From assembly GCA_035479795.1 (NCBI GenBank), contig DATIII010000008.1, forward strand, positions 94,487 to 158,486: DNA of 64,000 nt, given 5' to 3'. A program made the translations under genes and the position numbers. Positions 4,730 to 50,049 of this stretch are shown one piece after another. The notes under the pieces are model-generated. The model worked only from the letters and a program-made list of their open reading frames with translations, was not told the DNA's origin and ran no database searches. The DNA comes from Candidatus Saccharimonadales bacterium. GTDB lineage: Bacteria > Patescibacteriota > Saccharimonadia > UBA4664 > SCTI01. The first letter of the stretch is position 1; every line of letters begins with the position of its first letter.

Positions 4730-6132
4730 GCCAGCAGCTCCTCGGCCGCCGCCGCGGCGTCCAAAAGTACCTCTTCGCCTTTTTGCGGCGCGATTAGTTG
4801 CAGTCCGATTGGCAGACTATCAGTCTCTCCGGCCGGGATGCTTATGGCACAGTTACCAACCAGGTTTACAGCCACAGTATCAACATCGTTTAAATACATG
4901 GCCAATGGGTCTGACTTTTCACCAAGTTTAAATGCAGTGGTTGGAGCTGTCGGGCTAATCAGGAGGTCGAACTCTTTAAAGGCTTCATCAAACTCTTTGA
5001 CCAACAGCGTACGGACCTTTTGCGCCTGTTTGTAATAGGCATCGTAGTAACCGCTCGAAAGAACGTAGGTGCCAATAATAATCCGCCGCTTGGCCTCCGC
5101 GCCAAAGCCTTCATCTCGGCTCTTCAGGAAGGTTTCGCTTAATGTTTTCGCATCGCTAGAGCTATGTCCGAATCTAATACCATCATAGCGTGACAGGTTA
5201 GAACTGACTTCAGCCGGTACCAAAATGTAATAACAGGCCAATGCCAGATCAACCGATGGCAGGCTGACTTCTTCGACCGTCGCGCCGGCTGATTTAAACT
5301 TTTCGGCTGCATCCAGAACCGCCTGCCTGACCTCTGGCTGGGTGCCTTCGGCCAAATATTCTTTGATTAGGCCGATCTTAAGGTTTTTGAGATTGCCACT
5401 CCGCCCGCCGGATCGCAATGACAACTTAGAAGAATCGATTGTTGTAGAATCGTTCGGGTCCTGTCCAGCCATGACATCCAAAACCAGTGCGGCATCGGCC
5501 ACAGAGTTAGTCAGCGGGCCAATCACATCAACTGAGCTACCCATGGCCACCACACCGTAGCGAGACACTAATCCATAGGTCGGTTTCAGGCCGACGACGC
5601 CGCTGAGTGCTGCTGGCTGGCGGATGGAGCCGCCGGTATCCGTACCCAGCGCAAAGCACGCCAAGCCTAGCGCCACGGCCGCGGCCGAGCCGCCGGATGA
5701 ACCGCCGGGCACGCGCGACTTATCATGCGGGTTTTTGGTCGGGCCAAAGTCGCTATTCTCGGTTGAAGAGCCGTGGGCAAAAGCGTCCAAATTAGCCTTG
5801 GCCACCATAATCGCCCCCTCGGCCTCAAGCTTTTCGATCACAGTAGCTTGATAAGGTGCCTGGAAGGGCTTGAGGATGTTACTGGAAGCAGTGGTGTGCG
5901 TACCACTGGTAAGGAAATTATCTTTAGCGATAAATGGAATGCCGGCCAGCTTGCCTTGTTTATTTGCCTTTTTAGCCTGATCCAGCGCGCGCTCGTTAAC
6001 TTCTAAAATAGCGTGGTAATCTTCATTGGCTTTAATCGCCTCTAAGCTGGCCTTAACCAGATCCACCGGATCGAGTTTGCCGGCTTGGACATCGGCCACT
6101 AGCTCGGCAATCGGTCGCTTAAGATCAATCAT
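4726..6132 (-). CDS. gatA: Glu-tRNA(Gln) amidotransferase subunit A (amidase signature)
   Basis: GGSSGGSAAAVA amidase signature. Likely start is the internal Met (MIDLKRPI…) at 6132, giving an 8-nt overlap with the gatC stop; the ORF track extends it to 6171. Confidence 0.93.
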   Translation of the reverse strand: MIDLKRPIAELVADVQAGKLDPVDLVKASLEAIKANEDYHAILEVNERALDQAKKANKQGKLAGIPFIAKDNFLTSGTHTTASSNILKPFQAPYQATVIEKLEAEGAIMVAKANLDAFAHGSSTENSDFGPTKNPHDKSRVPGGSSGGSAAAVALGLACFALGTDTGGSIRQPAALSGVVGLKPTYGLVSRYGVVAMGSSVDVIGPLTNSVADAALVLDVMAGQDPNDSTTIDSSKLSLRSGGRSGNLKNLKIGLIKEYLAEGTQPEVRQAVLDAAEKFKSAGATVEEVSLPSVDLALACYYILVPAEVSSNLSRYDGIRFGHSSSDAKTLSETFLKSRDEGFGAEAKRRIIIGTYVLSSGYYDAYYKQAQKVRTLLVKEFDEAFKEFDLLISPTAPTTAFKLGEKSDPLAMYLNDVDTVAVNLVGNCAISIPAGETDSLPIGLQLIAPQKGEEVLLDAAAAAEELLA

Positions 6133-6421
6133 TATTAAGTACCCGCTTGACCCTATACTGCCCATCTTCAAAGTCGGGAGCGTTCAGTTTGAGGTCGTCG
6201 TAGCTCAAACCCTCCCGAACCTCGTCTTCACGCCAAACATCGACCAGTCCCGTGACTTGATCGGTTGGCTCGACCCCCTCAACATCAACTTCCTGGAGCT
6301 GTTCGACAAAGCCAACAATTTTAGCGAGCTCGTCGGCTAATTTGCTAACTTCGGCCTCCTGCAAGCCCATATTGGCCAGCTCGGCCACGCGGCGGACTTC
6401 ATCCGGAGTGATCTTTGACAT
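6125..6421 (-). CDS. gatC: Glu-tRNA(Gln) amidotransferase subunit C
   Basis: 98 aa, MSKITPDEVRRVAELANMGL…; first gene of the gatCAB operon. Confidence 0.9.
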   Translation of the reverse strand: MSKITPDEVRRVAELANMGLQEAEVSKLADELAKIVGFVEQLQEVDVEGVEPTDQVTGLVDVWREDEVREGLSYDDLKLNAPDFEDGQYRVKRVLNND

Positions 6422-6424
6422 AGG

Positions 6425-6462
6425 TCTTATTGTAGCGATTTAAGGTTACAGGAGCAAAAAAT
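6425..6462 (-). promoter_or_regulatory. putative sigma70 promoter for gatCAB (minus-strand TTGCTC-17-TACAAT); the -10 lies about 7 nt from the gatC ATG, suggesting a leaderless mRNA
   Basis: Reverse complement reads TTGCTCctgtaaccttaaatcgcTACAATaagacctATG. Confidence 0.4.
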
Positions 6463-6491
6463 TGACATTAGCATAACCACGAGAGCATAAT
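6463..6491 (+). promoter_or_regulatory. strong sigma70-like promoter (TTGACA-18-CATAAT) facing into the GC-rich non-coding block
   Basis: ttgacattagcataaccacgagagcataat; divergent from, and overlapping, the gatC promoter. Confidence 0.5.
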
Positions 6492-6496
6492 TCGGG

Positions 6497-7131
6497 GCAT
6501 GAGATGGGGCAATAGCCCTGTAGTACCCAACAAACTTGGCTACTGAGGCGTCGGGTCACCACCGTTCAATGGAATCTCGTCTGCCTCGCCCGCTTGCGCT
6601 TGGACTCCAGTCCCTTAGTGCGTCGGGTTAGGTGTTTTCCGTCTGGAGACGGAGCCGGTAGCCAAAATAACTGCGAGAGACCGGCCTTAGCCGGGATAGC
6701 CCGCTCCATAGGTGAAGCTGCTTATCCGCCCTAGAGCGGATCATGCGCCTCTCGCACCCTCGTGCCGGGACAGGTGGCCATAAGGTTCTGGAGCTTCCAT
6801 AAGGGGAACCTCCACCTGTCTCGGCCGACCACTTCGCTAGAACGATCCCAGCCTACGGGCATGGCCCGGTCTCGCGATAGGCGGGCCGCCCCCCGGCCCG
6901 AAAATGGGTGCGCGCTTTGCGCTGGACCGCGAGCGCGCACCCACCTCTTCGCCGGTTGAAAATCTGGCCATAGTCTCTAGGGGACGAGACTGTTCAGAAC
7001 CGGCGTCGGTGCGGCGGTCCATCACGTCGCAGCGGGGTGCGTGAGTCGTGCCACGCACCCCAAAAACTTTGCCACTGGCAAAGCGGGTTGGTGCGACCTC
7101 GCCAATCTGACTCCGGTTCACCCCGGGGATC
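6497..7131 (+). ncRNA. candidate large structured ncRNA; RNase P RNA (rnpB)-like motifs present but assignment unconfirmed
   Basis: ~630 nt with no plausible ORF on either strand and visibly high GC, bounded by a promoter and an intrinsic terminator. RNase-P-like motifs occur in the expected order: ccgtctggagacgg (P3-like hairpin) at 6636-6649, GCTCCATAGG at 6703-6712, CATAAGG twice at 6767-6773 and 6787-6793 (E. coli M1 has one copy, downstream of its CUCCACC element), AACCTCCACC at 6797-6806, and TTCAGAACCGGCGTCGG at ~6982-6998 (P4 3'-strand-like). Confidence 0.35.
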
Positions 7132-7166
7132 CGAACGACACCGGGGCTGGCGCCCTTCAGCGCCAG
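7132..7166 (+). terminator. rho-independent terminator (GGGGCTGGCGC-loop-GCGCCAGCCCC followed by TTTT)
   Basis: Perfect 11-bp GC-rich stem followed by a T run. Confidence 0.7.
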
Positions 7167-7270
7167 CCCCGTTTTACGTAATTATCCCTCCGTCATTCTC
7201 AGCTCGCCCAACTATCATTCTCGAGCGCAGCGAAGGATCTTTAGAGTCTAAGACTCCAATGCCATTTTTT

Positions 7271-7299
7271 CCCAGGCAGCCAGAGCCTGGGGTTTCTTC
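7271..7299 (+). terminator. second plus-strand intrinsic terminator (CCCAGGC-loop-GCCTGGG followed by GTTTCTT)
   Basis: 7-bp stem followed by a T-rich tract. Confidence 0.45.
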
Positions 7300-7513
7300 C
7301 ACAGCTTTTGAAGTGAGCAAAAGCTGTCCAAAACTGGCCGCGTAGAAGTTCACAGACTTGAAGCACTCCTTAATCCAAACCAATCTGAGCTGCGGAACTC
7401 GCTTCGCTCAAACAGTCCTCGCTTTTACAGATTTGGTTTGGATTGGTCGCTTTCAGGCTGCTCCATACGCGGGGATAGGGGAGGCCTGGATCCTCAATCC
7501 TGGATTCTGGATG

Positions 7514-9535
7514 CTATTTAAGTAGTTTCAGCAGGCCGGTTTCATCAATTTGCTTTGTGCCGTGCTTCTCGGCCTGTTTCACCTTACTTCCACCTGGAGA
7601 ATCGCCAATTATCAGATAGGTTGTATCTTTGGTGACGCTGTTTTGGAGCTTGCCGCCGAGAGCCACGATTTTTTCGCTAGCCGCCTCACGGCTAAATGCG
7701 TCAAGAGTCCCGGTAATCACAAAGCTCTGGCCGGTCAACCGTCCCTCGACCCGTTTACGCTCAACCGGGCGTACGCCAACCGCAGTCAATTTTTCGAGAT
7801 AATTTTGATGTCGCTTCGAATTTAGCCATTCATAGACGCTGCCGGCCACGACTTTGCCAATGCCCGCAACGTCCTGCAGTTCATCCAGTGAGACCTGCCT
7901 GAAGCGGTTAAGTGAGCCAAAGTGATCTGCCAAATCAATGGCAGTCTGCTGTCCAACATGGCGAATACCTAGAGCGTAGATAAAACGATCAAAGCTAATA
8001 TTTTTGCGATCTTGGATCGAGTCGACCAACTTACGAGCCGAAATATCGGCGAATCGCTCTAGCTTTACCAGTTGATCGTAGGTAAGTGAAAACAGATCGG
8101 CCGCGTCCTCCACCAGCTCAGCATCGATCAGCGCCTCCACATTCTTCTCGCCCATCCCCTCAATATCGTAGGCATCTTTGGAGGCAAAATGTACCACGCG
8201 ACCCCACTTTAGCGCGGGGCAATCAAAGTTAACACAACGCCAAACCGCTTCCTCGCTGCCCTTTCCCAGTGGCTGGCCGCAAACCGGACAGTTCTTCGGC
8301 ATTACAAAGGGCTTTTCCTTACCGGTTCTAAGCTTTGGCAGCGGCGCTACCACCTCCGGAATAATGTCCCCTGCCTTCTGGACAATGACGGTGTCACCAA
8401 TCCGAATATCCTTGCGGGCTACCTCGCCGGCATTGTGCAATGTGGCCATTTTGACAGTTGAGCCCGCAATTTTCACAGCCTCGAGCACAGCAAAGGGCGT
8501 AGCCGCACCGGTTCGCCCAATCGACACCATAATCTCCTTCAGGATAGTTGTCGCTTGCTCAGCCGGAAACTTATAGGCTACTGAACCGCGCGGGGCTTTA
8601 CCAACTACCCCCAGGGCGTTATAGATGGCCGTATCGTTTATAGTCGCCACCAGCCCATCGGTGCCATATGGCAGGTCGTGTCGCTTGTCCTCCCACTTAT
8701 GAGCAAACTTCATGATACCCTCGACTCCTTCAACCACCTCGCTATGGGGTTCCACCTTGAAACCCAGTTTGGCCGCCAACTCATGCTGAGCCCCGTGAGT
8801 ATCGAGACCGGGTACATTTGTCGCCAGTGCATATACATGAAAGCTCAGCGGTCTGGCTGCCACTAGCGCCGGATCTAGTTGGCGGATGGTGCCAGCGGCC
8901 GTATTGCGAGGGTTGGCAAACAACGGCTGACCCGCCTCTTCTCGCTCGGCATTGAGCCTACCGAAAACGGCTTTGTACATCATTACTTCCCCACGCACTT
9001 CAAACCGTCCCCGATATACAACATCAGGCACTCCGGGGTCACGACGCAGCACCAACGGTACCTGATCAATCGTCCGAATATTAGCTGTCACATCCTCACC
9101 CGTGCGGCCGTCCCCACGAGTCAATGCCCGAACTAGTAGTCCATCTTCATAAATAACCGCCGCCGCCAAGCCGTCCATTTTGATTTCAACATAAAACTCT
9201 TCGTCCAGGCCAGGTTGTAGCTTTTTAATCCGATCGACCCACGCCCTAGCCTCGGCTTCGTCAAACACGTCTTGCAGGCTAAGCATGGGCGCAGTGTGGG
9301 CTACAGCCGCAAACTTGGAGCTCGGCTTACCCGCTACTCGCTGGGTCGGGGAATCAGGTGTAATTAGGTCTGGAAACTGATCTTCCAACTGGCTGAGCTC
9401 ATGTTTAAGGCTGTCGGCCGCCGCCTCGCTCATCGTCGATTTGTCTAGCACATGATAGTAATAACGATAGTCATTAATCTGCTCGCGCAGCTTGGCAATC
9501 CGCTCCGCCGCCTGGTCTTTCTCAGGCAGCGGCAT
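7514..9535 (-). CDS. ligA: NAD-dependent DNA ligase
   Basis: 673 aa with KMDGLA adenylation motif, zinc-finger Cys cluster (CPVCGQPL…C) and HhH/BRCT C-terminus. Confidence 0.95.
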   Translation of the reverse strand: MPLPEKDQAAERIAKLREQINDYRYYYHVLDKSTMSEAAADSLKHELSQLEDQFPDLITPDSPTQRVAGKPSSKFAAVAHTAPMLSLQDVFDEAEARAWVDRIKKLQPGLDEEFYVEIKMDGLAAAVIYEDGLLVRALTRGDGRTGEDVTANIRTIDQVPLVLRRDPGVPDVVYRGRFEVRGEVMMYKAVFGRLNAEREEAGQPLFANPRNTAAGTIRQLDPALVAARPLSFHVYALATNVPGLDTHGAQHELAAKLGFKVEPHSEVVEGVEGIMKFAHKWEDKRHDLPYGTDGLVATINDTAIYNALGVVGKAPRGSVAYKFPAEQATTILKEIMVSIGRTGAATPFAVLEAVKIAGSTVKMATLHNAGEVARKDIRIGDTVIVQKAGDIIPEVVAPLPKLRTGKEKPFVMPKNCPVCGQPLGKGSEEAVWRCVNFDCPALKWGRVVHFASKDAYDIEGMGEKNVEALIDAELVEDAADLFSLTYDQLVKLERFADISARKLVDSIQDRKNISFDRFIYALGIRHVGQQTAIDLADHFGSLNRFRQVSLDELQDVAGIGKVVAGSVYEWLNSKRHQNYLEKLTAVGVRPVERKRVEGRLTGQSFVITGTLDAFSREAASEKIVALGGKLQNSVTKDTTYLIIGDSPGGSKVKQAEKHGTKQIDETGLLKLLK

Positions 9536-10347
9536 TATTTTAGACCTTTGTAGTATCGATAAAGGTAAAGGTTAGAAAGTGGCAACACCGTTAGCGCGAT
9601 AACCACCTGAATGAGCACCAGTACAAAAACATTCTGAGTAAAGTTAGCTAGCAAGGCTAGAAGACCAATTGGCACCACCAGCATCAATGCCAGCAGAAAG
9701 ACCAGGGCGATCATGCGACCGAGAGTCATAACCACTTTGCCTTTGGTGAGCAGCCGACTATGCCTAATTGCCTCCCACGGGCCCAGGTCAGTCTCGAAGA
9801 TGGCATAGAGCCCCCACAAACCGCGGGTGATCATTACAATACTGGGCACCGAGACGATCAGGGCGAGCAACCCCATCAGGGTTTTTTCGGCCGGCGACAG
9901 GGCCGTGCCCGGAGCTACAACTCCAAAGGCGAAAATAAGTAATCCGAGTAGCAGCGGCAGCAGCATAACCGTTAGCATTAATGCCACCAGGATCATACGG
10001 ATAAACATGGCCGAGCCCTTGTAATAAGATTCCCTAACCCCCACCTGATCACCATTTAGGAGTTGGACGATGGCGTAAACCAAGGCCACATTCATGGCCA
10101 GCTGTGCAAAGGTTAGATAAGCCGAAAGCGTGGTGTCACTGCCCGGATCCACCGCCAAGTTGGCTAGTAAAGCCACCGGCAAAATAACCGTCAGGATTAT
10201 CAGAACCAGAGCCCGTTTGTGCTTTCTAAAATCTTTCATCGACTGTTTAAACAGCGTCCACGGCTTAGGGTGCTTCTGGTGCTGATCACGCCAACTAATG
10301 ATGGAATTGCGAAACCATTCGAGCGGATGTCGTAGGTTATTCATCAT
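9535..10347 (-). CDS. polytopic membrane protein, hypothetical
   Basis: 270 aa with several predicted TM helices; stop overlaps the ligA start. Confidence 0.5.
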   Translation of the reverse strand: MMNNLRHPLEWFRNSIISWRDQHQKHPKPWTLFKQSMKDFRKHKRALVLIILTVILPVALLANLAVDPGSDTTLSAYLTFAQLAMNVALVYAIVQLLNGDQVGVRESYYKGSAMFIRMILVALMLTVMLLPLLLGLLIFAFGVVAPGTALSPAEKTLMGLLALIVSVPSIVMITRGLWGLYAIFETDLGPWEAIRHSRLLTKGKVVMTLGRMIALVFLLALMLVVPIGLLALLANFTQNVFVLVLIQVVIALTVLPLSNLYLYRYYKGLK

Positions 10348-10474
10348 TGCGGCAATCCTGTTTCGATGCAGTTCAAGGACGAGCGAGCACCGTAAGCGAA
10401 GCGTACATGAAGGTACGTTAAGCGCGGAGCGGAAGTTCGGACGCCGAAATGTGCGATAGAGGCTTGCCGCTTCA

Positions 10475-11362
10475 TTATACCTTCCCCTCCATGTCTCGGA
10501 GTTTCCTAATCCGATCCTCGATTGGCGGATGGGTACTAAAGAGATTAGCTACCAAGGCACCAGCTTTGCGACCAGCCAACGGGTTAGAAATATACATGTG
10601 GGCGTTAGCCGTGGAGGCGTGGCGCAATGGGCGGCCGGCGTGCTCGATCTTCTCCAGCGCGCGAGCTAAACCTTCTGGATAGCGAGTCAGTAGCGCTCCC
10701 GAAGCGTCGGCCAAATACTCACGGCGGCGCGAAACGGCCAACTGCAGCAGGGTGGCCACGATCGGCGCCAGGATGGCTAGAACGATCCCAATGATCATGA
10801 ACACCGGATTATTATCTTCCTCGTCGTCACCACCAAAGAAGTTCCAGCGGAAAAAGAAATCACTCAGCAGCGAAACCACCGTCACCAGGACCATGACAAT
10901 CGCCATAAAACGAATGTCGTAGTTCCCAACGTGGCTCAGCTCGTGAGCCAATACACCCTCCAGCTCTTCCTTTTCCATCACCTCCAAAATGCCAGTCGTC
11001 ACCGCCACCACAGCATGCTTCGGGTCGCGACCAGTAGCAAAAGCGTTAGGTGATGGATCATCGATAATGTAGACCCTGGGCATCGGCAGACCGGCAGTGA
11101 TCGCAAGATTTTCCACAATCCGATATAACTCAGGCGCATCCTTTTTGGCCACCTCACGAGCACCAGAAAGACTCAGAGCAATCTGGGCTGAGGCATAATA
11201 CCCAATTGTGGCGTACGCCAGCGAGCCCAGGCCGGCGAACACAAAAATTCCGGGATGATTAGTCGCTCGGGCAAAAACGTACCCGAGTATGGACACAAAG
11301 CCGACGAAGCCTATGGTTAACAACCATGATCTGCGCTTATTTGCCGCAATCTGAGTGTACAC
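10475..11362 (-). CDS. htpX: zinc metalloprotease HtpX (M48 family)
   Basis: HELSHVGNYD (HExxH) motif plus N-terminal TM helices; 295 aa. Confidence 0.85.
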   Translation of the reverse strand: MYTQIAANKRRSWLLTIGFVGFVSILGYVFARATNHPGIFVFAGLGSLAYATIGYYASAQIALSLSGAREVAKKDAPELYRIVENLAITAGLPMPRVYIIDDPSPNAFATGRDPKHAVVAVTTGILEVMEKEELEGVLAHELSHVGNYDIRFMAIVMVLVTVVSLLSDFFFRWNFFGGDDEEDNNPVFMIIGIVLAILAPIVATLLQLAVSRRREYLADASGALLTRYPEGLARALEKIEHAGRPLRHASTANAHMYISNPLAGRKAGALVANLFSTHPPIEDRIRKLRDMEGKV

Positions 11363-11364
11363 GG

Positions 11365-11658
11365 CTAGCCCTTAAGTAGCTTATTAAGCAATATATCGGC
11401 GGCGGCCGTATCGATGGCCGGATAAATTTTATTTACCAACTCCAGCACGGCGGCTAACCGAACCAGCGGCTCGGGGTTGAGTTTGTGCTGGGCCATCAGA
11501 TCGGCCGCTACAGCTGCCGGTACATCGGCAATGGCCTGACGAATGTGATGGGCTAGGACATTGGTTTCCGAGTCGCTAAATTCCTCGCCCACGCTAACTA
11601 GCTCCTTGGCCAGTGCCAGGGCATTCTTCCACGAATCTGTACGCTTAATTTCATCCAA
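11365..11658 (-). CDS. hypothetical protein
   Basis: 97-aa ORF between lemA and htpX in the same orientation. Confidence 0.4.
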   Translation of the reverse strand: MDEIKRTDSWKNALALAKELVSVGEEFSDSETNVLAHHIRQAIADVPAAVAADLMAQHKLNPEPLVRLAAVLELVNKIYPAIDTAAADILLNKLLKG

Positions 11659-11676
11659 CTTTTATCTAAACTCCAG

Positions 11677-12231
11677 CTAAAGCTTAACTTCGACTGGCTT
11701 ATCGATCTCCGCTTGGTTGTCGACTCCAAAGAATTCGCGAGCCTTAAAGCCCAACATGCCACCAAACAGGTTGGTCGGAAAAACTTGCAGCTTGGTGTTG
11801 AAATCACGGACATTACCGTTGTAGAAGCGGCGAGCCGCCTGAATCTTATCTTCGGTATCCACCAGCTCATCCTGTAGGGCTTTGAAGTTTTCGTTAGCCT
11901 TTAGCTGTGGGTAGGCCTCGGCCACGGCAAATAGGCTCTTTAGAGTACCGGCCAGCTGGTTTTCAGCCTGAGCCTTGTCCGCCATTCCGGTGGCGCCCAT
12001 AGCGGCACTGCGCGCGGCGCTGACATCAGAAAAGACCTTAGATTCGTGCGTGGCATAACCCTTGACCGTGGTGACCAGGTTAGGGATCAGATCGTACCGG
12101 CGCTTCAGCTGGACATTAATGTCGCTCCAGGCCTCGTCCGTCCGGTTCTTTGACTGAATCAGGCTATTGTAAACACCAATAACCCCAATCAGGATTACGG
12201 CTAATATTGCGATTACGATCCACATCGTCAT
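11677..12231 (-). CDS. lemA: LemA family protein
   Basis: N-terminal TM helix followed by a conserved LemA core (…NSLIQSKNRTDEAWSDINVQLKRRYDLIPNLV…RRFYNGNVRDFNTKLQVFPTNL…). Confidence 0.85.
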   Translation of the reverse strand: MTMWIVIAILAVILIGVIGVYNSLIQSKNRTDEAWSDINVQLKRRYDLIPNLVTTVKGYATHESKVFSDVSAARSAAMGATGMADKAQAENQLAGTLKSLFAVAEAYPQLKANENFKALQDELVDTEDKIQAARRFYNGNVRDFNTKLQVFPTNLFGGMLGFKAREFFGVDNQAEIDKPVEVKL

Positions 12232-12300
12232 GGTTTTGTACCTTGTTATTTTGGCTTATTATACCATTTTTGTGAGGTATTTGTATCTCAAAATACTACA

Positions 12301-12327
12301 CGCCCCCTCTAGTGAAAGAGGGGGCGC
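12301..12327 (-). terminator. strong GC hairpin (GCCCCCTCT…AGAGGGGGC) at the downstream end of the GC-rich island operon, just upstream of the lemA start
   Basis: ~9-bp perfect stem; the minus-strand read-out is followed by GTGTAGTATTTTGAG. Confidence 0.5.
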
Positions 12328-12329
12328 TG

Positions 12330-12692
12330 TTACTCGCGGAGGCGGGTAACGTCGAGGGTGACGCGGCTGACGTCGTCGATCTCGTTGCAGAGGCGCTTCG
12401 AAAGCTCCTCCATCCGCTTGAAAAAGTCCTCCTCGGGCTCCCCGTCATCCGGACATGCAGTAACCATCACGACCTTGCTGACATGAGGCTCATCACCCTT
12501 AACGCCTTTGGTCCTCAGCCGCGGCGGGCACCAGACCTCGAACGGACGGCCAGCCAGCTCATCGGCGATGATCAGCTTGGCAGCCCGCTGCACCTCACGG
12601 GCTCTCATGGCCGGCCTCGCAGGTCCCACTTCAGCCAATCCCAGCCGACAATCATCCCGACGGCAATTACTCCAGCGATTAGCCCGAGCCAA
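12330..12692 (-). CDS. hypothetical protein (GC-rich island); a shorter form may start at Met12617
   Basis: Minus-strand ORF tiling with the island operon; charged, protein-like composition. The overlapping plus-strand ORFs look like high-GC shadow frames. Confidence 0.4.
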   Translation of the reverse strand: MARANRWSNCRRDDCRLGLAEVGPARPAMRAREVQRAAKLIIADELAGRPFEVWCPPRLRTKGVKGDEPHVSKVVMVTACPDDGEPEEDFFKRMEELSKRLCNEIDDVSRVTLDVTRLRE

Positions 12693-12808
12693 GAATCGGA
12701 GGCAGCGACCGCCAAGGCACCTGGCAAGCTAGCCATGGCAGCGACAACTAGCCAGTAGTGCCTCTGACGCATGTAGGTCCGGAAATGGAACTTTCAGATT
12801 CTTCAACA

Positions 12809-13312
12809 CTACCGACTCCTCTCATAGGGGTTCTCCTCGGCCAGCTTGCGGGCGCGCTTTTCGATAATGCGCTCCTCCACACCGGTCAGCCGCATATTCG
12901 AAGGATGATGGCTGTCGCTCAAGACATAGCCGATGTAGATCCAGCAAAGACAGTCGAACAGATACTGGGAGCCATGATTGTTCAGGCCGTCACGGTTGGC
13001 TTTCCAAACTGCGTCTGCATGAACCCAGATTTCATGCGGAACCTTTGGCTTACCGGGGGTTCTTGCGGCGCTCTGAATGACCTTGAGCGTGCGCAAAACA
13101 TGATCACTGGACGTCAGTACGACCCTGACATCCCTTGCCTCGTCGGCGCTGCTTACAACCTCGACATGACGCTTGAACCATTCAGCACCCACTGACTGAC
13201 TGAGTCCATTGAGACTCACCCCAGCCTTTTCGGCAACCTGGCCCAAAGTGGCATTACCGCACAAATCATGCAGCGCCAGCAGAATCTGCTTCTGCCTAGT
13301 GTTTAGGCCCAC
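12809..13312 (-). CDS. HTH DNA-binding protein (LuxR/sigma-region-4-like N-terminal HTH), GC-rich island
   Basis: GTG start preceded by GAGGTGAGGAA; N-terminus …TRQKQILLALHDLCGNATLGQVAEKAGVSLNGLSQSV… is HTH-like. Confidence 0.5.
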   Translation of the reverse strand: MGLNTRQKQILLALHDLCGNATLGQVAEKAGVSLNGLSQSVGAEWFKRHVEVVSSADEARDVRVVLTSSDHVLRTLKVIQSAARTPGKPKVPHEIWVHADAVWKANRDGLNNHGSQYLFDCLCWIYIGYVLSDSHHPSNMRLTGVEERIIEKRARKLAEENPYERSR

Positions 13313-13327
13313 TTCCTCACCTCGCTT

Positions 13328-13897
13328 TCAGAGTTGGATTTGGCTTGCGCCGGGCCGAAAGATGGGCTCATGTTCACCCCATCCGGGCTGGCCGCGGCAG
13401 TCGCTCACGATGCCGTCGATCTCCACCCGGCAGATAGGGCAATGAGTCTTGCCCTCGGCCACCAACGAGTCACGTAGCTCCAACGGCCGGTCAGCCAGCT
13501 CACGACGGATCTCATGCCAACGCTGCTCCACGTCTTCCAGGGCTCGCCCCAATGCCCCACGAAGCCGGCCAAGATCGCCAAACGGAAAGCCCTGCCCACC
13601 GGTGGCCGACAGGTAGGAGCGGCCAGTATCACCAATCGGGTCTATCTGACTGAGAGCTTGAGTCAGATCGACATGGAGCTGCCGCCAAGGGGTAGTTCTG
13701 TCTAGATCGTCTTCGCGCCAGCGGATGGCCGAGGTCCGACGAGCATCGACCGATGCCGGCGTGCCGCGTAGCTCGAGCATGCGGGTGCACGGCAGCGGTT
13801 CACCACAGCCCTCGCAGACCGGCCGGTAATTCATAGGTCGATGGCCCTCAGCAGCGGCCGGATCAGGCAGGGTTGACGTCAGAGTTGGTGGCGCCAT
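13328..13897 (-). CDS. zinc-ribbon protein (two CxxC…C knuckles), GC-rich island
   Basis: Strong RBS AAGGAG 7 nt upstream; motifs CEGCGEPLPC and CPICRVEIDGIVSDC. Confidence 0.5.
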   Translation of the reverse strand: MAPPTLTSTLPDPAAAEGHRPMNYRPVCEGCGEPLPCTRMLELRGTPASVDARRTSAIRWREDDLDRTTPWRQLHVDLTQALSQIDPIGDTGRSYLSATGGQGFPFGDLGRLRGALGRALEDVEQRWHEIRRELADRPLELRDSLVAEGKTHCPICRVEIDGIVSDCRGQPGWGEHEPIFRPGASQIQL

Positions 13898-13918
13898 TAG
13901 TTTCTCCTTTTCAAGGTT

Positions 13919-14410
13919 CTATGCCCACACCAACTGGTATGGAACTTTCTTTTGTATCCGCTCGATTGCCTCGTCCAGCAGCTTGCCCAGATTGTAGGGT
14001 TTCGGCTGGCTGGCGTTCCACAGGGCGTATCTGATTTGCCCTGCCGAAAAGCCCATGAAGCCAGCAATATCCCGCGGCTCCAATGCGGTCAGCTGATCGG
14101 CCAAGAGGATCGTCCACATCCGTGCCCAATCCTCCATGCCTTGACGCCCCTTGGGGAGACGAACGGGGTTTACGGGATAGGAACCACAGATGTCTTGAGC
14201 GATGGCCGTCAGGACGTCGTGGCCCAGATCGATCTCGGCCACGGCCTTGAGGTGGTTTTCGCGGCCTCCCTTATTCCAGATTGAGTAGCCCAGACAGGCG
14301 GCATCAAAACAGTTCCGGCACAGCCGGATTCCCTTGTACTTCTCGACTGCCCGAGGCGGCCCCTTGGTCCCCCAAGGGCAGCTCTCGCATTTTCCCTTGG
14401 GAGGCATTCT
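13919..14410 (-). CDS. zinc-ribbon plus putative C-terminal HTH protein, GC-rich island
   Basis: Start moved to the internal Met (MPPKGKCESCPW…CRNC…) with RBS GAGGTGA, because the ORF-track N-terminus is simply read-through of tRNA-Leu. Confidence 0.5.
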   Translation of the reverse strand, partial: RMPPKGKCESCPWGTKGPPRAVEKYKGIRLCRNCFDAACLGYSIWNKGGRENHLKAVAEIDLGHDVLTAIAQDICGSYPVNPVRLPKGRQGMEDWARMWTILLADQLTALEPRDIAGFMGFSAGQIRYALWNASQPKPYNLGKLLDEAIERIQKKVPYQLVWA

Positions 14411-14436
14411 CACCTCGTTTTGGTATTGGTGTTCAC

Positions 14437-14465
14437 AGATTAGATAAAGCCGACAATTATTGCAA
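14437..14465 (-). promoter_or_regulatory. putative promoter of the island operon (TTGCAA-17-TAATCT), abutting the tRNA-Leu 3' end
   Basis: Reverse complement reads TTGCAAtaattgtcggctttatcTAATCT. Confidence 0.3.
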
Positions 14466-14467
14466 AT

Positions 14468-14553
14468 TGGTGGGAGAGGTGGGACTCGAACCCACAAGCC
14501 CGTAAAGGCAGCGGATTTTAAGTCCGCCGTGTATACCATTCCACCACTCTCCC
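14468..14553 (-). tRNA. tRNA-Leu (anticodon UAA)
   Basis: Manual fold: 7-bp acceptor stem GGGAGAG/CTCTCCC, anticodon arm GCGGA-CTTAAAA-TCCGC, long variable arm, T-loop GTTCGAGTC, encoded CCA. Confidence 0.85.
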
Positions 14554-14568
14554 TGGAGGCACCTAGGG
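14554..14568. repeat. 15-bp direct repeat of the tRNA-Cys 3' end (tggaggcacctaggg), immediately 5' of tRNA-Leu(UAA)
   Basis: Exact 15/15 match to 14688-14702; looks like an att-site or integration-scar style duplication. Confidence 0.7.
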
Positions 14569-14687
14569 TATGTCGCTTCGCGACCTCCTTGCGGTGCTCG
14601 GAACATGCCTGAGCAAGCTCGGCGCGTTCCTGCGCTCCTCATCCACCGAACCCTGGGTTTCGCTTCCCCAGATCGATTAACTCTAAT

Positions 14688-14761
14688 TGGAGGCACCTAG
14701 GGGAATCGAACCCCTGTAAAAGGTTTTGCAGACCTCTGCGTAACCACTCCGCCAAGGTGCC
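14688..14761 (-). tRNA. tRNA-Cys (anticodon GCA)
   Basis: Manual fold: acceptor stem GGCACCT/AGGTGCC, anticodon arm GAGGT-CTGCAAA-ACCTT, T-loop GGTTCGATTCC, discriminator U plus CCA. Confidence 0.85.
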
Positions 14762-14884
14762 AACGATAAGATTATACATTGGCGCTATCAGATATAAAAC
14801 GCTATTGCCTAGCGGCATTGCCAAGACGCACCGAGGATGTCATAATCGGTATACGAGTATGCCCCACAAACCCAGGAGGGACAC

Positions 14885-15276
14885 TGGTGAAGACTCGATT
14901 TAACCGTAGTGAAGGCTTCGAAGCACTCGTCGCCCAGGTTCACCGGCAGTTTGCCACCGACCCGAGGACGACCCACGAGATCTGCGAAGCAACCACTACC
15001 CCTCGCGCCAAGTGCGAGAGGTGGATAACGCCCTTTGGCGGCAGTACCTGCGTTCAAATGCTGCTCGCCGAATACGACACAGGTGGCCGGCTCTGCCAGC
15101 TGTCCGTCATCTCGGCCGATGGCCGCTGGCACGAGCTGGTTTCTGAAAACAACGGCGACGCCCCTGCTGGCAGACTGTCGCTTTGGACCGATACGGAATT
15201 GGCCCGAGCCACTGCAGCCAAGCTGCGACACTGTTTTAGGTGGCAGCGCCGCCCTAGCCTGGCCCTCGCGGCCTAG
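14885..15276 (+). CDS. hypothetical protein (GC-rich; GTG start after AGGAGGG)
   Basis: Plus-strand ORF with a strong RBS; the competing antisense ORF lacks one. Confidence 0.4.
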
Positions 15277-15318
15277 AACGCCATACAGCCGTTCTCTGAC
15301 ATGGATGTTGGAGGACGG

Positions 15319-16068
15319 CTAGTTGTTTTTATAAGCTTTTTGCCTGGCCGAGTGGCTTACGAAGTCAGAAAGTAACATCAGCCAGCTGTCATCCTGCTTG
15401 TACAACCATTCCGGATGAAACTGGGTCGCCATAATATAATGATTGCCATCTCCTTCCAGCACCTCAATGACGTTATCAGGAGCCATGGCCGCAATCTTTA
15501 AGCCCGGGGCAACGATATCCACGGCCTGATTATGCAGTGAGTTTACAGTCACGACATCACGTCCCATGATCTGGCGCAAGTGGGACTGCGGCCGGACGTG
15601 GATTTCATGAACAGGCAGGTCGAATTGTTTCTTTTTAAATGACTCGTCATGGTCGATCTCGGCATGACTCTGCGACGGGATGGTCTGATGCAAACTCCCG
15701 CCCATTACCACATTCATAATTTGAAGGCCGCGGCATACGCCAAACACCGGCTTTCGATCCAAAACACACCAACTGGCCATTACCATTTCGGCTTTATCCA
15801 CCCGAAGACTCGGCCGGTCAAGTTTACGTTGTATTTCCTGATGATAGAAACCCGGATCAATATCGCCGCCGCCACAGAACAGCATGCCGTCCAGAGTTTG
15901 ATAAATGCGCTTTAGGCTGGCAGTTTCAACCAACGGTACCAAAACCGGGGCTCCCCCGGCCGCCTCGATGGCTTCCACATAAGCCCCCAAAACGCCTTGG
16001 CGTTGCGGATACCATGACCGAGCCTCGTCATCCACCTCGCGGCAAACAATTCCCACCAGCGGTTTCAT
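15319..16068 (-). CDS. class I glutamine amidotransferase-like / peptidase C26 (gamma-glutamyl hydrolase family, PuuD-like)
   Basis: GVCRGLQ nucleophile elbow and a downstream His; 249 aa. Confidence 0.75.
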   Translation of the reverse strand: MKPLVGIVCREVDDEARSWYPQRQGVLGAYVEAIEAAGGAPVLVPLVETASLKRIYQTLDGMLFCGGGDIDPGFYHQEIQRKLDRPSLRVDKAEMVMASWCVLDRKPVFGVCRGLQIMNVVMGGSLHQTIPSQSHAEIDHDESFKKKQFDLPVHEIHVRPQSHLRQIMGRDVVTVNSLHNQAVDIVAPGLKIAAMAPDNVIEVLEGDGNHYIMATQFHPEWLYKQDDSWLMLLSDFVSHSARQKAYKNN

Positions 16069-16141
16069 AGTTCTTATGCTACGCCTTTATCCCGCCACAG
16101 TAAACACTATTCACATCTGGAAAGTTATTTAAAAGTCCTGG

Positions 16142-16732
16142 TTAATGGAACTTCTGGCCGGTCTTGAGCATTTCCATGATTGCATCCAGCCGTTTTTGGC
16201 GAGTTTCCGGCTTTATGGCGGTGTTGAGGCGGAAAGCGATGGCGTATTTATTGGCTTTGCTAAGCGTATTGTAGAACTCCTCGGCCTCAGGGTACCGTGA
16301 AAGCAGTTTTAAGAAATCAGCCGGCGTCTCCATATTGGCGGGCGAATCATAGGCGGCCTCCCAGCGACCATCAGTTTTGGCCGCCTCGATCTGCACTAAA
16401 CCAGCCGGACGCATTTTTTTATTGGCGATCAACCGCTCCACGTTTTCAATATTCTTCTTCGACCAAATGCTGCGCGGTCGCCTGGGCGTGAACTTCTGGA
16501 TAAAACTAATGTCGTCGTACTTGTTTACCAGGCTATCAATCCAGCCGAAACATAAGGCAACATCGACTGCTCCTCCCCAGTCGAGGGTGGGTTTGCCAGA
16601 TGCTTTTTTATAAAAGCGCAGCCAAACCCCAGGCTCCTTAGAATGATTTGCTTCAAGCCATGAATAAAACTCATCCCCGGTCTTAAAACTTTTTATAACT
16701 AATCCGTCTTTTTGTAGTTTTGGCATAATCAA
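16142..16732 (-). CDS. YdeI/OmpD-associated family protein (DUF1801/1905-like)
   Basis: 196-aa ORF whose N-terminal region (MIMPKLQKDGLVIKSFKTGDEFYSWLEANHSKEPGVWLRFYKK…) matches the YdeI-like family from memory; a domain search was not run. Confidence 0.5.
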   Translation of the reverse strand: MIMPKLQKDGLVIKSFKTGDEFYSWLEANHSKEPGVWLRFYKKASGKPTLDWGGAVDVALCFGWIDSLVNKYDDISFIQKFTPRRPRSIWSKKNIENVERLIANKKMRPAGLVQIEAAKTDGRWEAAYDSPANMETPADFLKLLSRYPEAEEFYNTLSKANKYAIAFRLNTAIKPETRQKRLDAIMEMLKTGQKFH

Positions 16733-16805
16733 ATATTACTCCCCTACTCCTGGAAATGTCTATGTGGCTATGCTACAATTTGACGGTTCGCCAGCCTGGC
16801 GACGC

Positions 16806-16892
16806 GCGGACGTGGCGGAATGGTAGACGCGCCAGCTTGAGGGGCTGGTGACCGCTTAGGTCGTGGAGGTTCAAGTCCTCTCGTCCGCACCA
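16806..16892 (+). tRNA. tRNA-Leu (anticodon GAG)
   Basis: GCGGACG…CGTCCGCACCA; anticodon arm CCAGC-TTGAGGG-GCTGG; long variable arm. Confidence 0.85.
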
Positions 16893-16960
16893 GTAAGCAA
16901 TTATTTGTAATTTATCACCCATAGGTCATCATAGAAGTGACTCGACCGAAGGAGTGGCAC

Positions 16961-17506
16961 ATGAAGTTTGGGCGGCAAGGATCCGAAGCCGCCTTAATGC
17001 GGCGCAAGGTCCTATTTCTACTCGTCAACTCACGTGAGCCTAAGCGCCCTCGCGAACTAGTTGAGATGGGCTGGGGCAAGGATAGCGGCCACATCATCGA
17101 GCAAAAGGTAGGTTTGGCGCTGCGTTGGCTAAAAGATGCCGGGCTAGTCAGGCAGGTTCCGAACGAAACTCTGACATGGCCAAAATGGGAGGTCAACGAG
17201 CAAGCCCGAGTGATTTTTGCCGGAGAAGCTGAAACCGAATCTCTCCCGATCGCTATACCCGATCGAGACGTCTACCCCGAGATTAACGACGTCAACGGCG
17301 AAGACGGCATTCGCTTTGTCGGGGTGGATCAGGACCAATCGCGTGATGACGGAGATTTGGGCGTCCTAATCGAGGGCTACCACCCCGAGGTGATGCTGAC
17401 CCCGGAGGGAGCTGAGGAGTTAGCTGACCGGTTGCGCCAAGCTGCTGCCCGGGCTCGGTTTGAGCAACAGGGCCGTGGCGCTATAGGAGGCGAGGCTTCA
17501 TCGTGA
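16961..17506 (+). CDS. hypothetical protein with an N-terminal winged-helix-like region (GC-rich)
   Basis: Starts MKFGRQ…; followed by a GGGAGGGG-tttcgg-CCCCTCCC hairpin. Confidence 0.45.
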   Translation: MKFGRQGSEAALMRRKVLFLLVNSREPKRPRELVEMGWGKDSGHIIEQKVGLALRWLKDAGLVRQVPNETLTWPKWEVNEQARVIFAGEAETESLPIAIPDRDVYPEINDVNGEDGIRFVGVDQDQSRDDGDLGVLIEGYHPEVMLTPEGAEELADRLRQAAARARFEQQGRGAIGGEASS

Positions 17507-17530
17507 GGGAGGGGTTTCGGCCCCTCCCTT
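17507..17530 (+). terminator. GC hairpin after the 16961-17506 gene (weak U tract)
   Basis: GGGAGGGGtttcggCCCCTCCC. Confidence 0.4.
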
Positions 17531-17569
17531 GAAGCATCATCAAGCTATCTGTATGATTAATCAGGTTTA

Positions 17570-49960: not shown

Positions 49961-49973
49961 AGTTTCTCCTTAT

Positions 49974-50008
49974 TTCGACTTTCGACTTTCGACTTTCGAC
50001 TTTCGACT
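49974..50008. repeat. perfect heptanucleotide tandem repeat (TTCGACT)x5, equal to (AGTCGAA)x5 in the cupredoxin sense, between a TATAAT-like box and the AAGGAG RBS
   Basis: Direct reading: tat ttcgact ttcgact ttcgact ttcgact ttcgact tataat. Confidence 0.9.
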
Positions 50009-50049
50009 TATAATATTGTACCTTGGCAGCGCCAAAATCCAAGCTCTAG

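Follow-up and report, generated by a model that had tools for sequence, protein, structure and literature searches.

A unit of 134 nucleotides (nt) lies between the genes for tRNA-Cys(GCA) and tRNA-Leu(UAA) in a 64,000-nt stretch (the window) of contig DATIII010000008.1, which belongs to a metagenome-assembled genome of a Candidatus Saccharimonadales bacterium (GCA_035479795.1). The unit is probably one copy of a dispersed, tRNA-linked structured element, the Saccharimonadia counterpart of the RtT units in the Escherichia coli tyrT operon. In the proposed plan of such a unit, a short variable leader would be followed by a four-way-junction core of about 100 nt and then by a copy of the final 15 to 18 nt of the upstream tRNA. 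This tail copy would span the tRNA from the T-loop/T-stem boundary to CCA, its first 6 to 7 nt closing the junction and the rest being single-stranded.

Two exact copies of the plus-strand 15-mer TGGAGGCACCTAGGG are present, at 14554-14568 and at 14688-14702, offset by 134 bp. On the tRNA strand it reads CCCTAGGTGCCTCCA, which takes in four T-stem 3' bases out of five, the 3' strand of the acceptor stem, the discriminator base, and CCA. Between the distal copy and G+1 of tRNA-Leu(UAA) there is no gap. Chance was rejected as the source of the repeat, since exact 15-mer direct pairs no more than 200 nt apart are expected at only about 0.01 per window (mean of 200 first-order Markov simulations). 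The real window contains two such pairs, the tRNA-Cys repeat and a tandem repeat near 49973; the latter is a short tandem repeat at 49973-50010 with the unit TTTCGAC(T). No partial copy of at least 11 nt was found near any other tRNA of the window. A preliminary description of this DNA had given the repeat with these positions and this distance, a GTCGC-GAA-GCGAC hairpin in the spacer, and a spacer free of any intact tRNA fold. All of this was borne out; the hairpin is present at 14572-14584, and no tRNA fold was found in the spacer even under relaxed ARAGORN settings.

A genome scan with the neighboring HtpX protein returned 80 loci. The spacer between tRNA-Cys and tRNA-Leu(UAA) was 0 nt in L003, L004, L084, and L086, the first two of which are among the closest relatives, and 2 to 5 nt in L014, L018, and L019. 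The 134 bp are thus an insertion, because the spacer in these seven relatives is 0 to 5 nt, in agreement with the insertion considered in the preliminary description. The ancestral junction, CCTCCA followed by GGGAGAGTGG, is retained at the distal copy. A metagenome scan with the junction GGTGCCTCCAGGGAGAGTGGTGGAA returned three further sites. In two of them an intact tRNA-Cys abuts tRNA-Leu; the third begins at the match itself, and its upstream side was unreadable. These comparisons show that the unit was gained in the lineage of the window at a site that is empty in relatives. The tRNA-Phe/tRNA-Gly site of the window is itself empty (1-nt spacer), and the identical tRNA-Phe in the relative L089 bears a unit. 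The long Phe-Gly spacers of L011 and L014 contain no unit.

At the same point between tRNA-Cys and tRNA-Leu, unrelated insertions of 470 to 809 nt with no tRNA fragment are found in four relatives (L007, 8012-8546; L009, 3567-4036; L011, 1689-2355; L056, 7788-8596). One of these is an open reading frame (ORF) that matches HNH_3 only weakly (E = 0.0017, short of the Pfam cut-off), one has a motif resembling a Nudix box (by eye only), and two have antisense low-complexity ORFs. The tRNA-Cys/tRNA-Leu junction is an insertion hot spot.

To find sister copies, 95 tRNAs in 1.15 Mb of collected sequence were scanned for copies of their own 3' ends. Four cases were detected, all 120 to 153 nt downstream of the tRNA, and three of them (tRNA-Cys of the window and tRNA-Val and tRNA-Phe of L056) have a homologous core of about 100 nt. 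A covariance model built from these three copies, CM R1, then detected two further units in L089, a short contig of a closer relative, with scores of 61 and 39 bits. One of them lies behind the tRNA-Phe that is identical to that of the window, and the other (2033-2155) has a tRNA-Leu(UAA)-type fragment and lies beside an unidentified RNA end, here called X. The set thus comprises five copies from three genomes (window, L056, and L089). CM R1 gives 106 bits on 14554-14670, with the window copy itself being part of the training set of the model.

The tRNA fragment is identical to the 3' end of the adjacent tRNA for tRNA-Cys of the window (15 of 15 nt), tRNA-Val and tRNA-Phe of L056 (17 of 17 and 18 of 18), and tRNA-Phe of L089 (17 of 17). 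It starts at the second T-stem 3' base in the window and at the last one or two T-loop bases in the sister copies. The identity between the cores is only 47 to 77%, and the combination of exact fragments with such cores indicates that the tail is kept identical by selection or gene conversion. The cores group by lineage and not by tRNA (win_Cys with L089_X, 77%; L056_Val with L056_Phe, 67%; L089_Phe with L056_Phe, 56%), indicating either that units spread between tRNA genes inside a lineage or that the copies evolved in concert. Core homology begins at one common position in all copies, and the leaders before it (15 to 60 nt; 17 to 60 nt in the copies outside the window) are unrelated in sequence. 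This common start indicates that the copies are complete units rather than random deletion remnants. The window unit and three of the four sister copies are located directly 3' of a tRNA gene and on the same strand. By BLAST, the spacer showed no similarity to the window or to 80 relatives beyond chance 11- to 15-mers. Scans of 2.9 million viral contigs gave no match to spacer pieces or to a strict core motif; a loose core motif had 27 chance matches, all rejected by the covariance model.

Two further loci are recorded here beside the sister copies. In L089, the X RNA end (...GTCAAACAAACGCACCA) lies at the contig edge (2156-2203, minus strand), and CACCATTTTGGCT is found on both sides of the Leu-type unit, which may reflect a tandem unit or a rearrangement. 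In L021 (3501-3725), a partial second copy of tRNA-Ser(GGA), covering the anticodon loop to the T-loop, begins 33 nt after the gene; next come a hairpin-rich insert of 58 nt at the T-loop/T-stem boundary and the 13-nt tRNA 3' end. The interruption point is that of the RtT-like units; the insert is different and was missed by CM R2, the second covariance model described below.

The fold of the unit was predicted from the five copies with RNAalifold. The consensus is a four-way junction with 33 pairs, composed of the closing helix, the AACC/GGUU hairpin with CGGUGRA, a long stem-loop flanked by AGCGCAG and CCRAGCAC, and the small hairpin GTCGC-GAA-GCGAC. Paired cells amounted to 88.7%, compared with 30 to 41% when the partners were slid, and compensatory changes were found in 15 of the 33 pairs, compared with 4 to 7. 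The observed pairing values were reached by none of 500 shuffles. The window copy makes 28 of the 33 consensus pairs. Compensatory changes occurred in 9 of the 16 pairs of the composite stem-loop and in 5 of the 7 pairs of the closing helix.

The helix that closes the junction links the 5' end of the unit to the first 6 to 7 nt of the tRNA fragment and covaries with tRNA identity. Its 5' strand resembles, in every copy, acceptor position 7 (often 6-7) and the T-stem 5' strand of the cognate tRNA. In the window this strand is CUGGGG, which resembles acceptor positions 6-7 and the T-stem 5' strand of tRNA-Cys and pairs with CCCUAG (14563-14568) at the start of the fragment. The first 6 nt of the distal copy thus form the 3' strand of the closing helix, and the other 9 nt, terminated by CCA, form the 3' tail; among the copies the unpaired remainder is 9 to 11 nt through CCA. 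On this comparison of sequences, the tRNA fragment reads as an integral, maintained part of the unit and not as debris. A consensus scan predicted no promoter or terminator within the unit. The features of the locus are listed in Table 1.

Table 1. Features of the tRNA-Cys/tRNA-Leu(UAA) locus, in window coordinates
Feature	Position	Strand	Evidence or remark
tRNA-Leu(UAA)	14468-14553	-	ARAGORN and Rfam
Whole inserted unit, 134 nt (variable leader, structured core, tRNA-Cys 3' fragment)	14554-14687	-	Empty sites in relatives
Distal copy of the tRNA-Cys 3' end, CCCUAGGUGCCUCCA	14554-14568	-	Abuts tRNA-Leu +1
36-aa ORF antisense to the unit	14570-14680	+	Annotated in the NCBI record; judged spurious
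Hairpin 5, GUCGC-GAA-GCGAC (noted in the preliminary description)	14572-14584	-	Kept in all copies; GUUGC/GCAAC in L056_Val
Long stem-loop made up of helices 3 and 4, between conserved AGCGCAG and CCGAGCAC	14590-14641	-	
Invariant CGGUGRA, directly after hairpin 2	14642-14648	-	Invariant columns in alignment A5
Hairpin 2, AACC-CAG-GGUU	14649-14659	-	Invariant columns in alignment A5
Closing helix, 5' strand CUGGGG	14666-14671	-	RNAalifold and pair counts
Variable leader, ATTAGAGTTAATCGA, adjoining the tRNA-Cys CCA end	14673-14687	-	Alignments A1 and A5
Proximal repeat copy (last 15 nt of tRNA-Cys)	14688-14702	-	
tRNA-Cys(GCA), CCA encoded	14688-14761	-	ARAGORN; Rfam tRNA, 64.7 bits
Sigma-70-like promoter, TTTATA-16-TATAAT, upstream of tRNA-Cys	14771-14798	-	Consensus match only

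A first Rfam scan reported no family for the unit. Small searches with the RtT family (RF00391) gave full-length matches located exactly on L089_Phe (19.2 bits) and L056_Val (17.8 bits). The tyrT-tyrV locus of E. coli K-12 has four RtT units, each of which opens with GGGGAAGG, pairing with CCUUCCCC, continues with GAUGAGAA, a hairpin, and GGUUCGA, and closes with AAUCCUUCCCCCACCACCA, the last 19 nt of tRNA-Tyr. CM R2 was built from the five Saccharimonadia copies only and includes the closing helix, which CM R1 does not. Its matches to the four E. coli units all fell on the exact unit ends, with scores of 15.7 to 21.1 bits (E = 7e-4 to 0.018), compared with a maximum of 9.9 bits in 56 kb of tRNA-rich control sequence. 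The 12-mer AAGCGCGCAGCG is common to the L056 copies and E. coli RtT, at a different place within the unit. As a possible second RtT context, the 116-nt tyrU-glyT spacer of E. coli was examined and proved not to be one.

Several points weigh against assigning the unit to an RtT-like class. The window copy had no RF00391 match at E ≤ 10 in a 261-nt search, and the scores of the sister copies are far below the gathering threshold of 45 bits. CM R1 gave no more than 5.2 bits on E. coli RtT, equal to tRNA noise; this model is blind to the E. coli units, and architecture, 5' motif, and tRNA tail are thus what ties the unit to RtT. The two kinds may have arisen independently from tRNA 3'-end duplications. 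The covariation statistics are thin, coming from five copies in three genomes, and the window unit, folded as a single sequence, shows no unusual stability (z = -1.6). The unit at 2033-2155 of L089, with its Leu-type fragment after X, is unexplained by the simple model. The order of tRNA, insert, and 3' fragment is equally produced by attP x attB recombination.

This last point leads to the explanation in the preliminary description, a decayed tyrosine-integrase scar. An element would have integrated at the T-stem/acceptor junction of tRNA-Cys, and either attL and attR were left after its deletion or the unit is an integrase-less, cis-mobilizable remnant whose core is an attP arm. Such integrase-less, att-flanked remnants have been reviewed as cis-mobilizable elements (PMC5704250). 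The insertion itself and the repeat as a tRNA 3' fragment with att geometry stand: a 3'-terminal tRNA fragment lies downstream in direct orientation and starts at the T-stem/acceptor region, as in the Islander criteria (PMC4383910). The insertion is also lineage specific, the spacer has the G+C content (58.0%) of the GC-rich blocks beside it, above the 51.9% mean of the window, and AGAGT is common to the 8 nt following each repeat copy. The integrase as the cause did not stand. Under the same criteria, the cognate downstream fragment and its start sublocation are in place, but the 119-bp interval between tRNA and fragment holds no integrase and the length is 134 bp versus 2 to 200 kb. The statement that the window has no integrase gene was confirmed, as none of 30 scanned ORFs matched an integrase or recombinase family in Pfam (20 matched other families and 10 none), and no such gene lies between the repeats or beside the other copies that could be checked.

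The interval is, moreover, a conserved and structured core, about 100 nt long, which recurs behind other tRNAs. All five units span 134 to 169 nt, counted from the end of the tRNA to that of the fragment, and have an identical start of homology; independent deletions would not yield this uniform size and common start. One core is found on fragments of four tRNAs and clusters by genome, which would require repeated retargeting of attP. The compensatory changes in the core are of the RNA type and include the helix with the fragment itself, and the core was not found in the viral contigs scanned. An integrase origin is considered unlikely.

Somewhat doubtful to a similar order, and rated unlikely as well with slightly less weight, is a nonautonomous mobile element that retargets itself by means of a tRNA 3'-end template, for example, by reverse transcription of the tail up to the T-loop. 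The fragments of 15, 17, 17, and 18 nt (19 nt in E. coli) all run to CCA and start at tRNA positions 58 to 62, which would suit such a template, as would the spread between tRNAs within lineages and the filled and empty sites side by side in related genomes. However, none of the copies has a linked reverse transcriptase, transposase, or nuclease, terminal inverted repeats are lacking, and the 5' strand of the closing helix would need to be respecified at each move. E. coli is also not known to have the T-loop m1A58 methylation that would stop a reverse transcriptase there, which counts further against this explanation.

The preliminary description had offered a decayed duplicate of tRNA-Cys as an alternative; in this explanation, no more than the final 15 nt of a tandem copy would be left. 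The 5' end of the unit, CUGGGG AAGCGAAACC, is faintly like the tRNA-Cys T-arm CAGGGG TTCGATTCC, and the longer partial tRNA-Ser copy of L021 is interrupted at the same position. Against this, the 59 nt upstream of the copy aligned to the tRNA-Cys body with a global score of -13, below the shuffle mean of -10.1 (standard deviation, 3.8), and pseudo-tRNA runs of ARAGORN (-ps, -ps80, and -ps70 -i) found no further tRNA on the strand of the unit. An exact 15-mer beside wholly unrelated sequence is not a pattern of decay, homology links the spacer to units that follow other tRNAs, and a tandem tRNA-Cys pair occurs in no relative examined. As no remnant of the tRNA body could be traced upstream of the copy, the pseudogene was rejected as very unlikely.

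It is extremely unlikely that the antisense 36-aa ORF is the functional part: it is annotated and has a good Shine-Dalgarno-like motif at suitable spacing (GGAGG, 9 nt upstream, supplied by the repeat), but its frame is lost through two 1-nt indels relative to the L056 copies, L056_Phe lacks the start codon, conservation is at the level of nucleotides and base pairs, and a profile of the antisense pseudo-peptide matched only the window ORF itself among 5.8 billion proteins, so that a protein gene was rejected.

An assembly artefact joining reads of different populations at common tRNA sequence is just as hard to credit. The source is metagenome assembled, and independent Logan unitigs (SRR9179562 and SRR9179560) end inside tRNA-Cys (14733), tRNA-Leu(UAA) (~14496), and tRNA-Leu(GAG) (16850), probably reflecting tRNA sequence common to co-occurring populations. 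Because the unitigs break inside both tRNAs, linkage across the whole segment comes from the metagenome-assembled genomes only. However, window positions 5319-16857 are 100% identical to contig CAZQMU010000003.1 of GCA_964594805.1, unit included, and homologous units of the same layout are present in three other contigs from unrelated samples. The 15-bp overlap is shorter than assembler k-mers, and a false join from the repeat is thus impossible.

For the RtT-like unit, the arrangement of the locus suggests how an RNA could be made. The unit would be cotranscribed with tRNA-Cys and tRNA-Leu from the promoter-like site at 14771-14798 and excised by the tRNA maturation machinery, with an RNase P cut at tRNA-Leu +1 yielding the exact CCA 3' end. 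By analogy with E. coli rtT RNA, which is reportedly a small RNA with a tRNA-like 3' end, the product may be a small RNA with such an end. As a working assumption, a new tail and its matching 5' strand would be acquired by tRNA 3'-end duplication together with recombination or gene conversion. One may speculate that the unit acts as a decoy for, or a modulator of, enzymes that read tRNA 3' ends.

The occurrence of the RtT plan in Saccharibacteria, with their reduced genomes, turns an isolated oddity into a comparative problem. The exact tail and the covarying closing helix argue that the tRNA tail is essential, functionally or mechanistically, and the fragments of four tRNA types show that units either move between different tRNAs or originate there afresh. 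It is improbable, in our estimate, that RtT-like units form a phylum-spanning class of self-propagating, protein-less tRNA-tail elements. In such a class, each unit would gain an exact tail of 15 to 19 nt and the complementary 5' strand by an RNA-mediated or gene conversion process; if true, this would be a new kind of tRNA-targeting mobile element and not a local curiosity of E. coli. The covariance model supplied here may serve to gather many more copies. Units of this kind are prone to misannotation: they will pass for small ORFs, of which the 36-aa "gene" is an example, for tRNA fragments, or for att scars.

The surroundings of the unit were also examined. A GC-rich block (12232-14467, minus strand; 57.9% versus 51.9% for the window) extends from tRNA-Leu(UAA) to LemA and contains five co-oriented orphan ORFs; in L004, LemA starts 80 nt past tRNA-Leu. 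In the preliminary description, an excised element may have left its island genes behind; no link between these ORFs and the repeat was seen, and no tRNA-Leu 3'-end repeats bound the 2.2-kb block. The ORFs had no match in Pfam or PHROGs, nor by tblastn in 50,697 phage records, and a viral locus search was likewise negative. The 167-aa and 189-aa ORFs of the block have essentially no relatives among 5.8 billion and 1.84 billion proteins.

On the other side, a GC-rich ORF (14779-15276, plus strand) between the peptidase C26 gene and tRNA-Cys has a 55%-identical homologue in the same position in L089 (1503-1931), indicating that it is not a recent island gene. The peptidase C26/glutamine amidotransferase gene (15319-16068, minus strand) has two close relatives only (69% and 58% identity). 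The next matches are about 42% identical, and the few that are named by organism are all of Chloroflexi type (Chloroflexi bacterium and Roseiflexus sp.). This distribution suggests that the gene was acquired horizontally. Farther along (16893-17569, plus strand), an ORF of 189 aa that weakly matches DUF6907 sits between tRNA-Leu(GAG) and tRNA-Val(UAC) and is followed by a GC-rich hairpin, GAGGGAGGGGTTTCGGCCCCTCCCT; this is a small tRNA-adjacent insert with no tRNA fragment.

Among known systems, tRNA att islands and their cis-mobilizable remnants resemble the unit in having an intact tRNA, a displaced 3' fragment in the same orientation, and lineage-specific insertion. They differ in size (134 bp for the unit versus at least 2 kb); the unit also has no integrase, is a structured module common to different tRNAs, and has a fragment that takes part in a conserved helix. 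Miniature inverted-repeat transposable elements (MITEs) are likewise small, noncoding, and multicopy, show presence or absence at orthologous sites, and are flanked by direct repeats of target sequence. In the units, however, the "duplication" is 15 to 18 bp and always a tRNA 3' end through CCA, and the units are strictly tRNA linked in one orientation. No terminal inverted repeats were found in 14554-14702, including by inspection, and the repeat lengths are 15, 17, 17, and 18 nt. A MITE or other DNA transposon derivative failed on terminal inverted repeats and on a target site duplication of fixed length.

RtT repeats were reportedly described in the E. coli tyrT operon decades ago, where the repeat is 178 bp long and present in 3.14 copies. 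RtT members are found in several tRNA operons, with insertion differences between strains (PMC4986893, PMC7542023), and their function or mode of action was still called unknown from 2020 to 2024 (PMC7542023; bioRxiv 10.1101/2024.07.17.603846). The two kinds of unit differ in host (Patescibacteria/Saccharimonadia versus Gammaproteobacteria) and in their inner domains, which form a four-way junction in Saccharimonadia and one long branched helix in the Rfam model. The window has a single unit rather than a tandem array and no counterpart of the tpr ORF. In contrast, the overall plan is the same. Both lie in a tRNA operon, directly behind a tRNA and on the same strand, and measure 120 to 130 nt. 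Both end in an exact copy of the upstream tRNA 3' end through CCA, which in E. coli is 19 nt long and starts in the T-loop. In both, the 5' end of the unit pairs with the T-stem/acceptor part of the tail, a helix that is also in the Rfam consensus. The closing strand is followed by GA(U/C)GAGAA, a hairpin, and GGUUCG, and GAGAAcc...GGUUCG is the hairpin 2 region in Saccharimonadia. Subthreshold covariance model matches were obtained in both directions and fell on exact unit boundaries.

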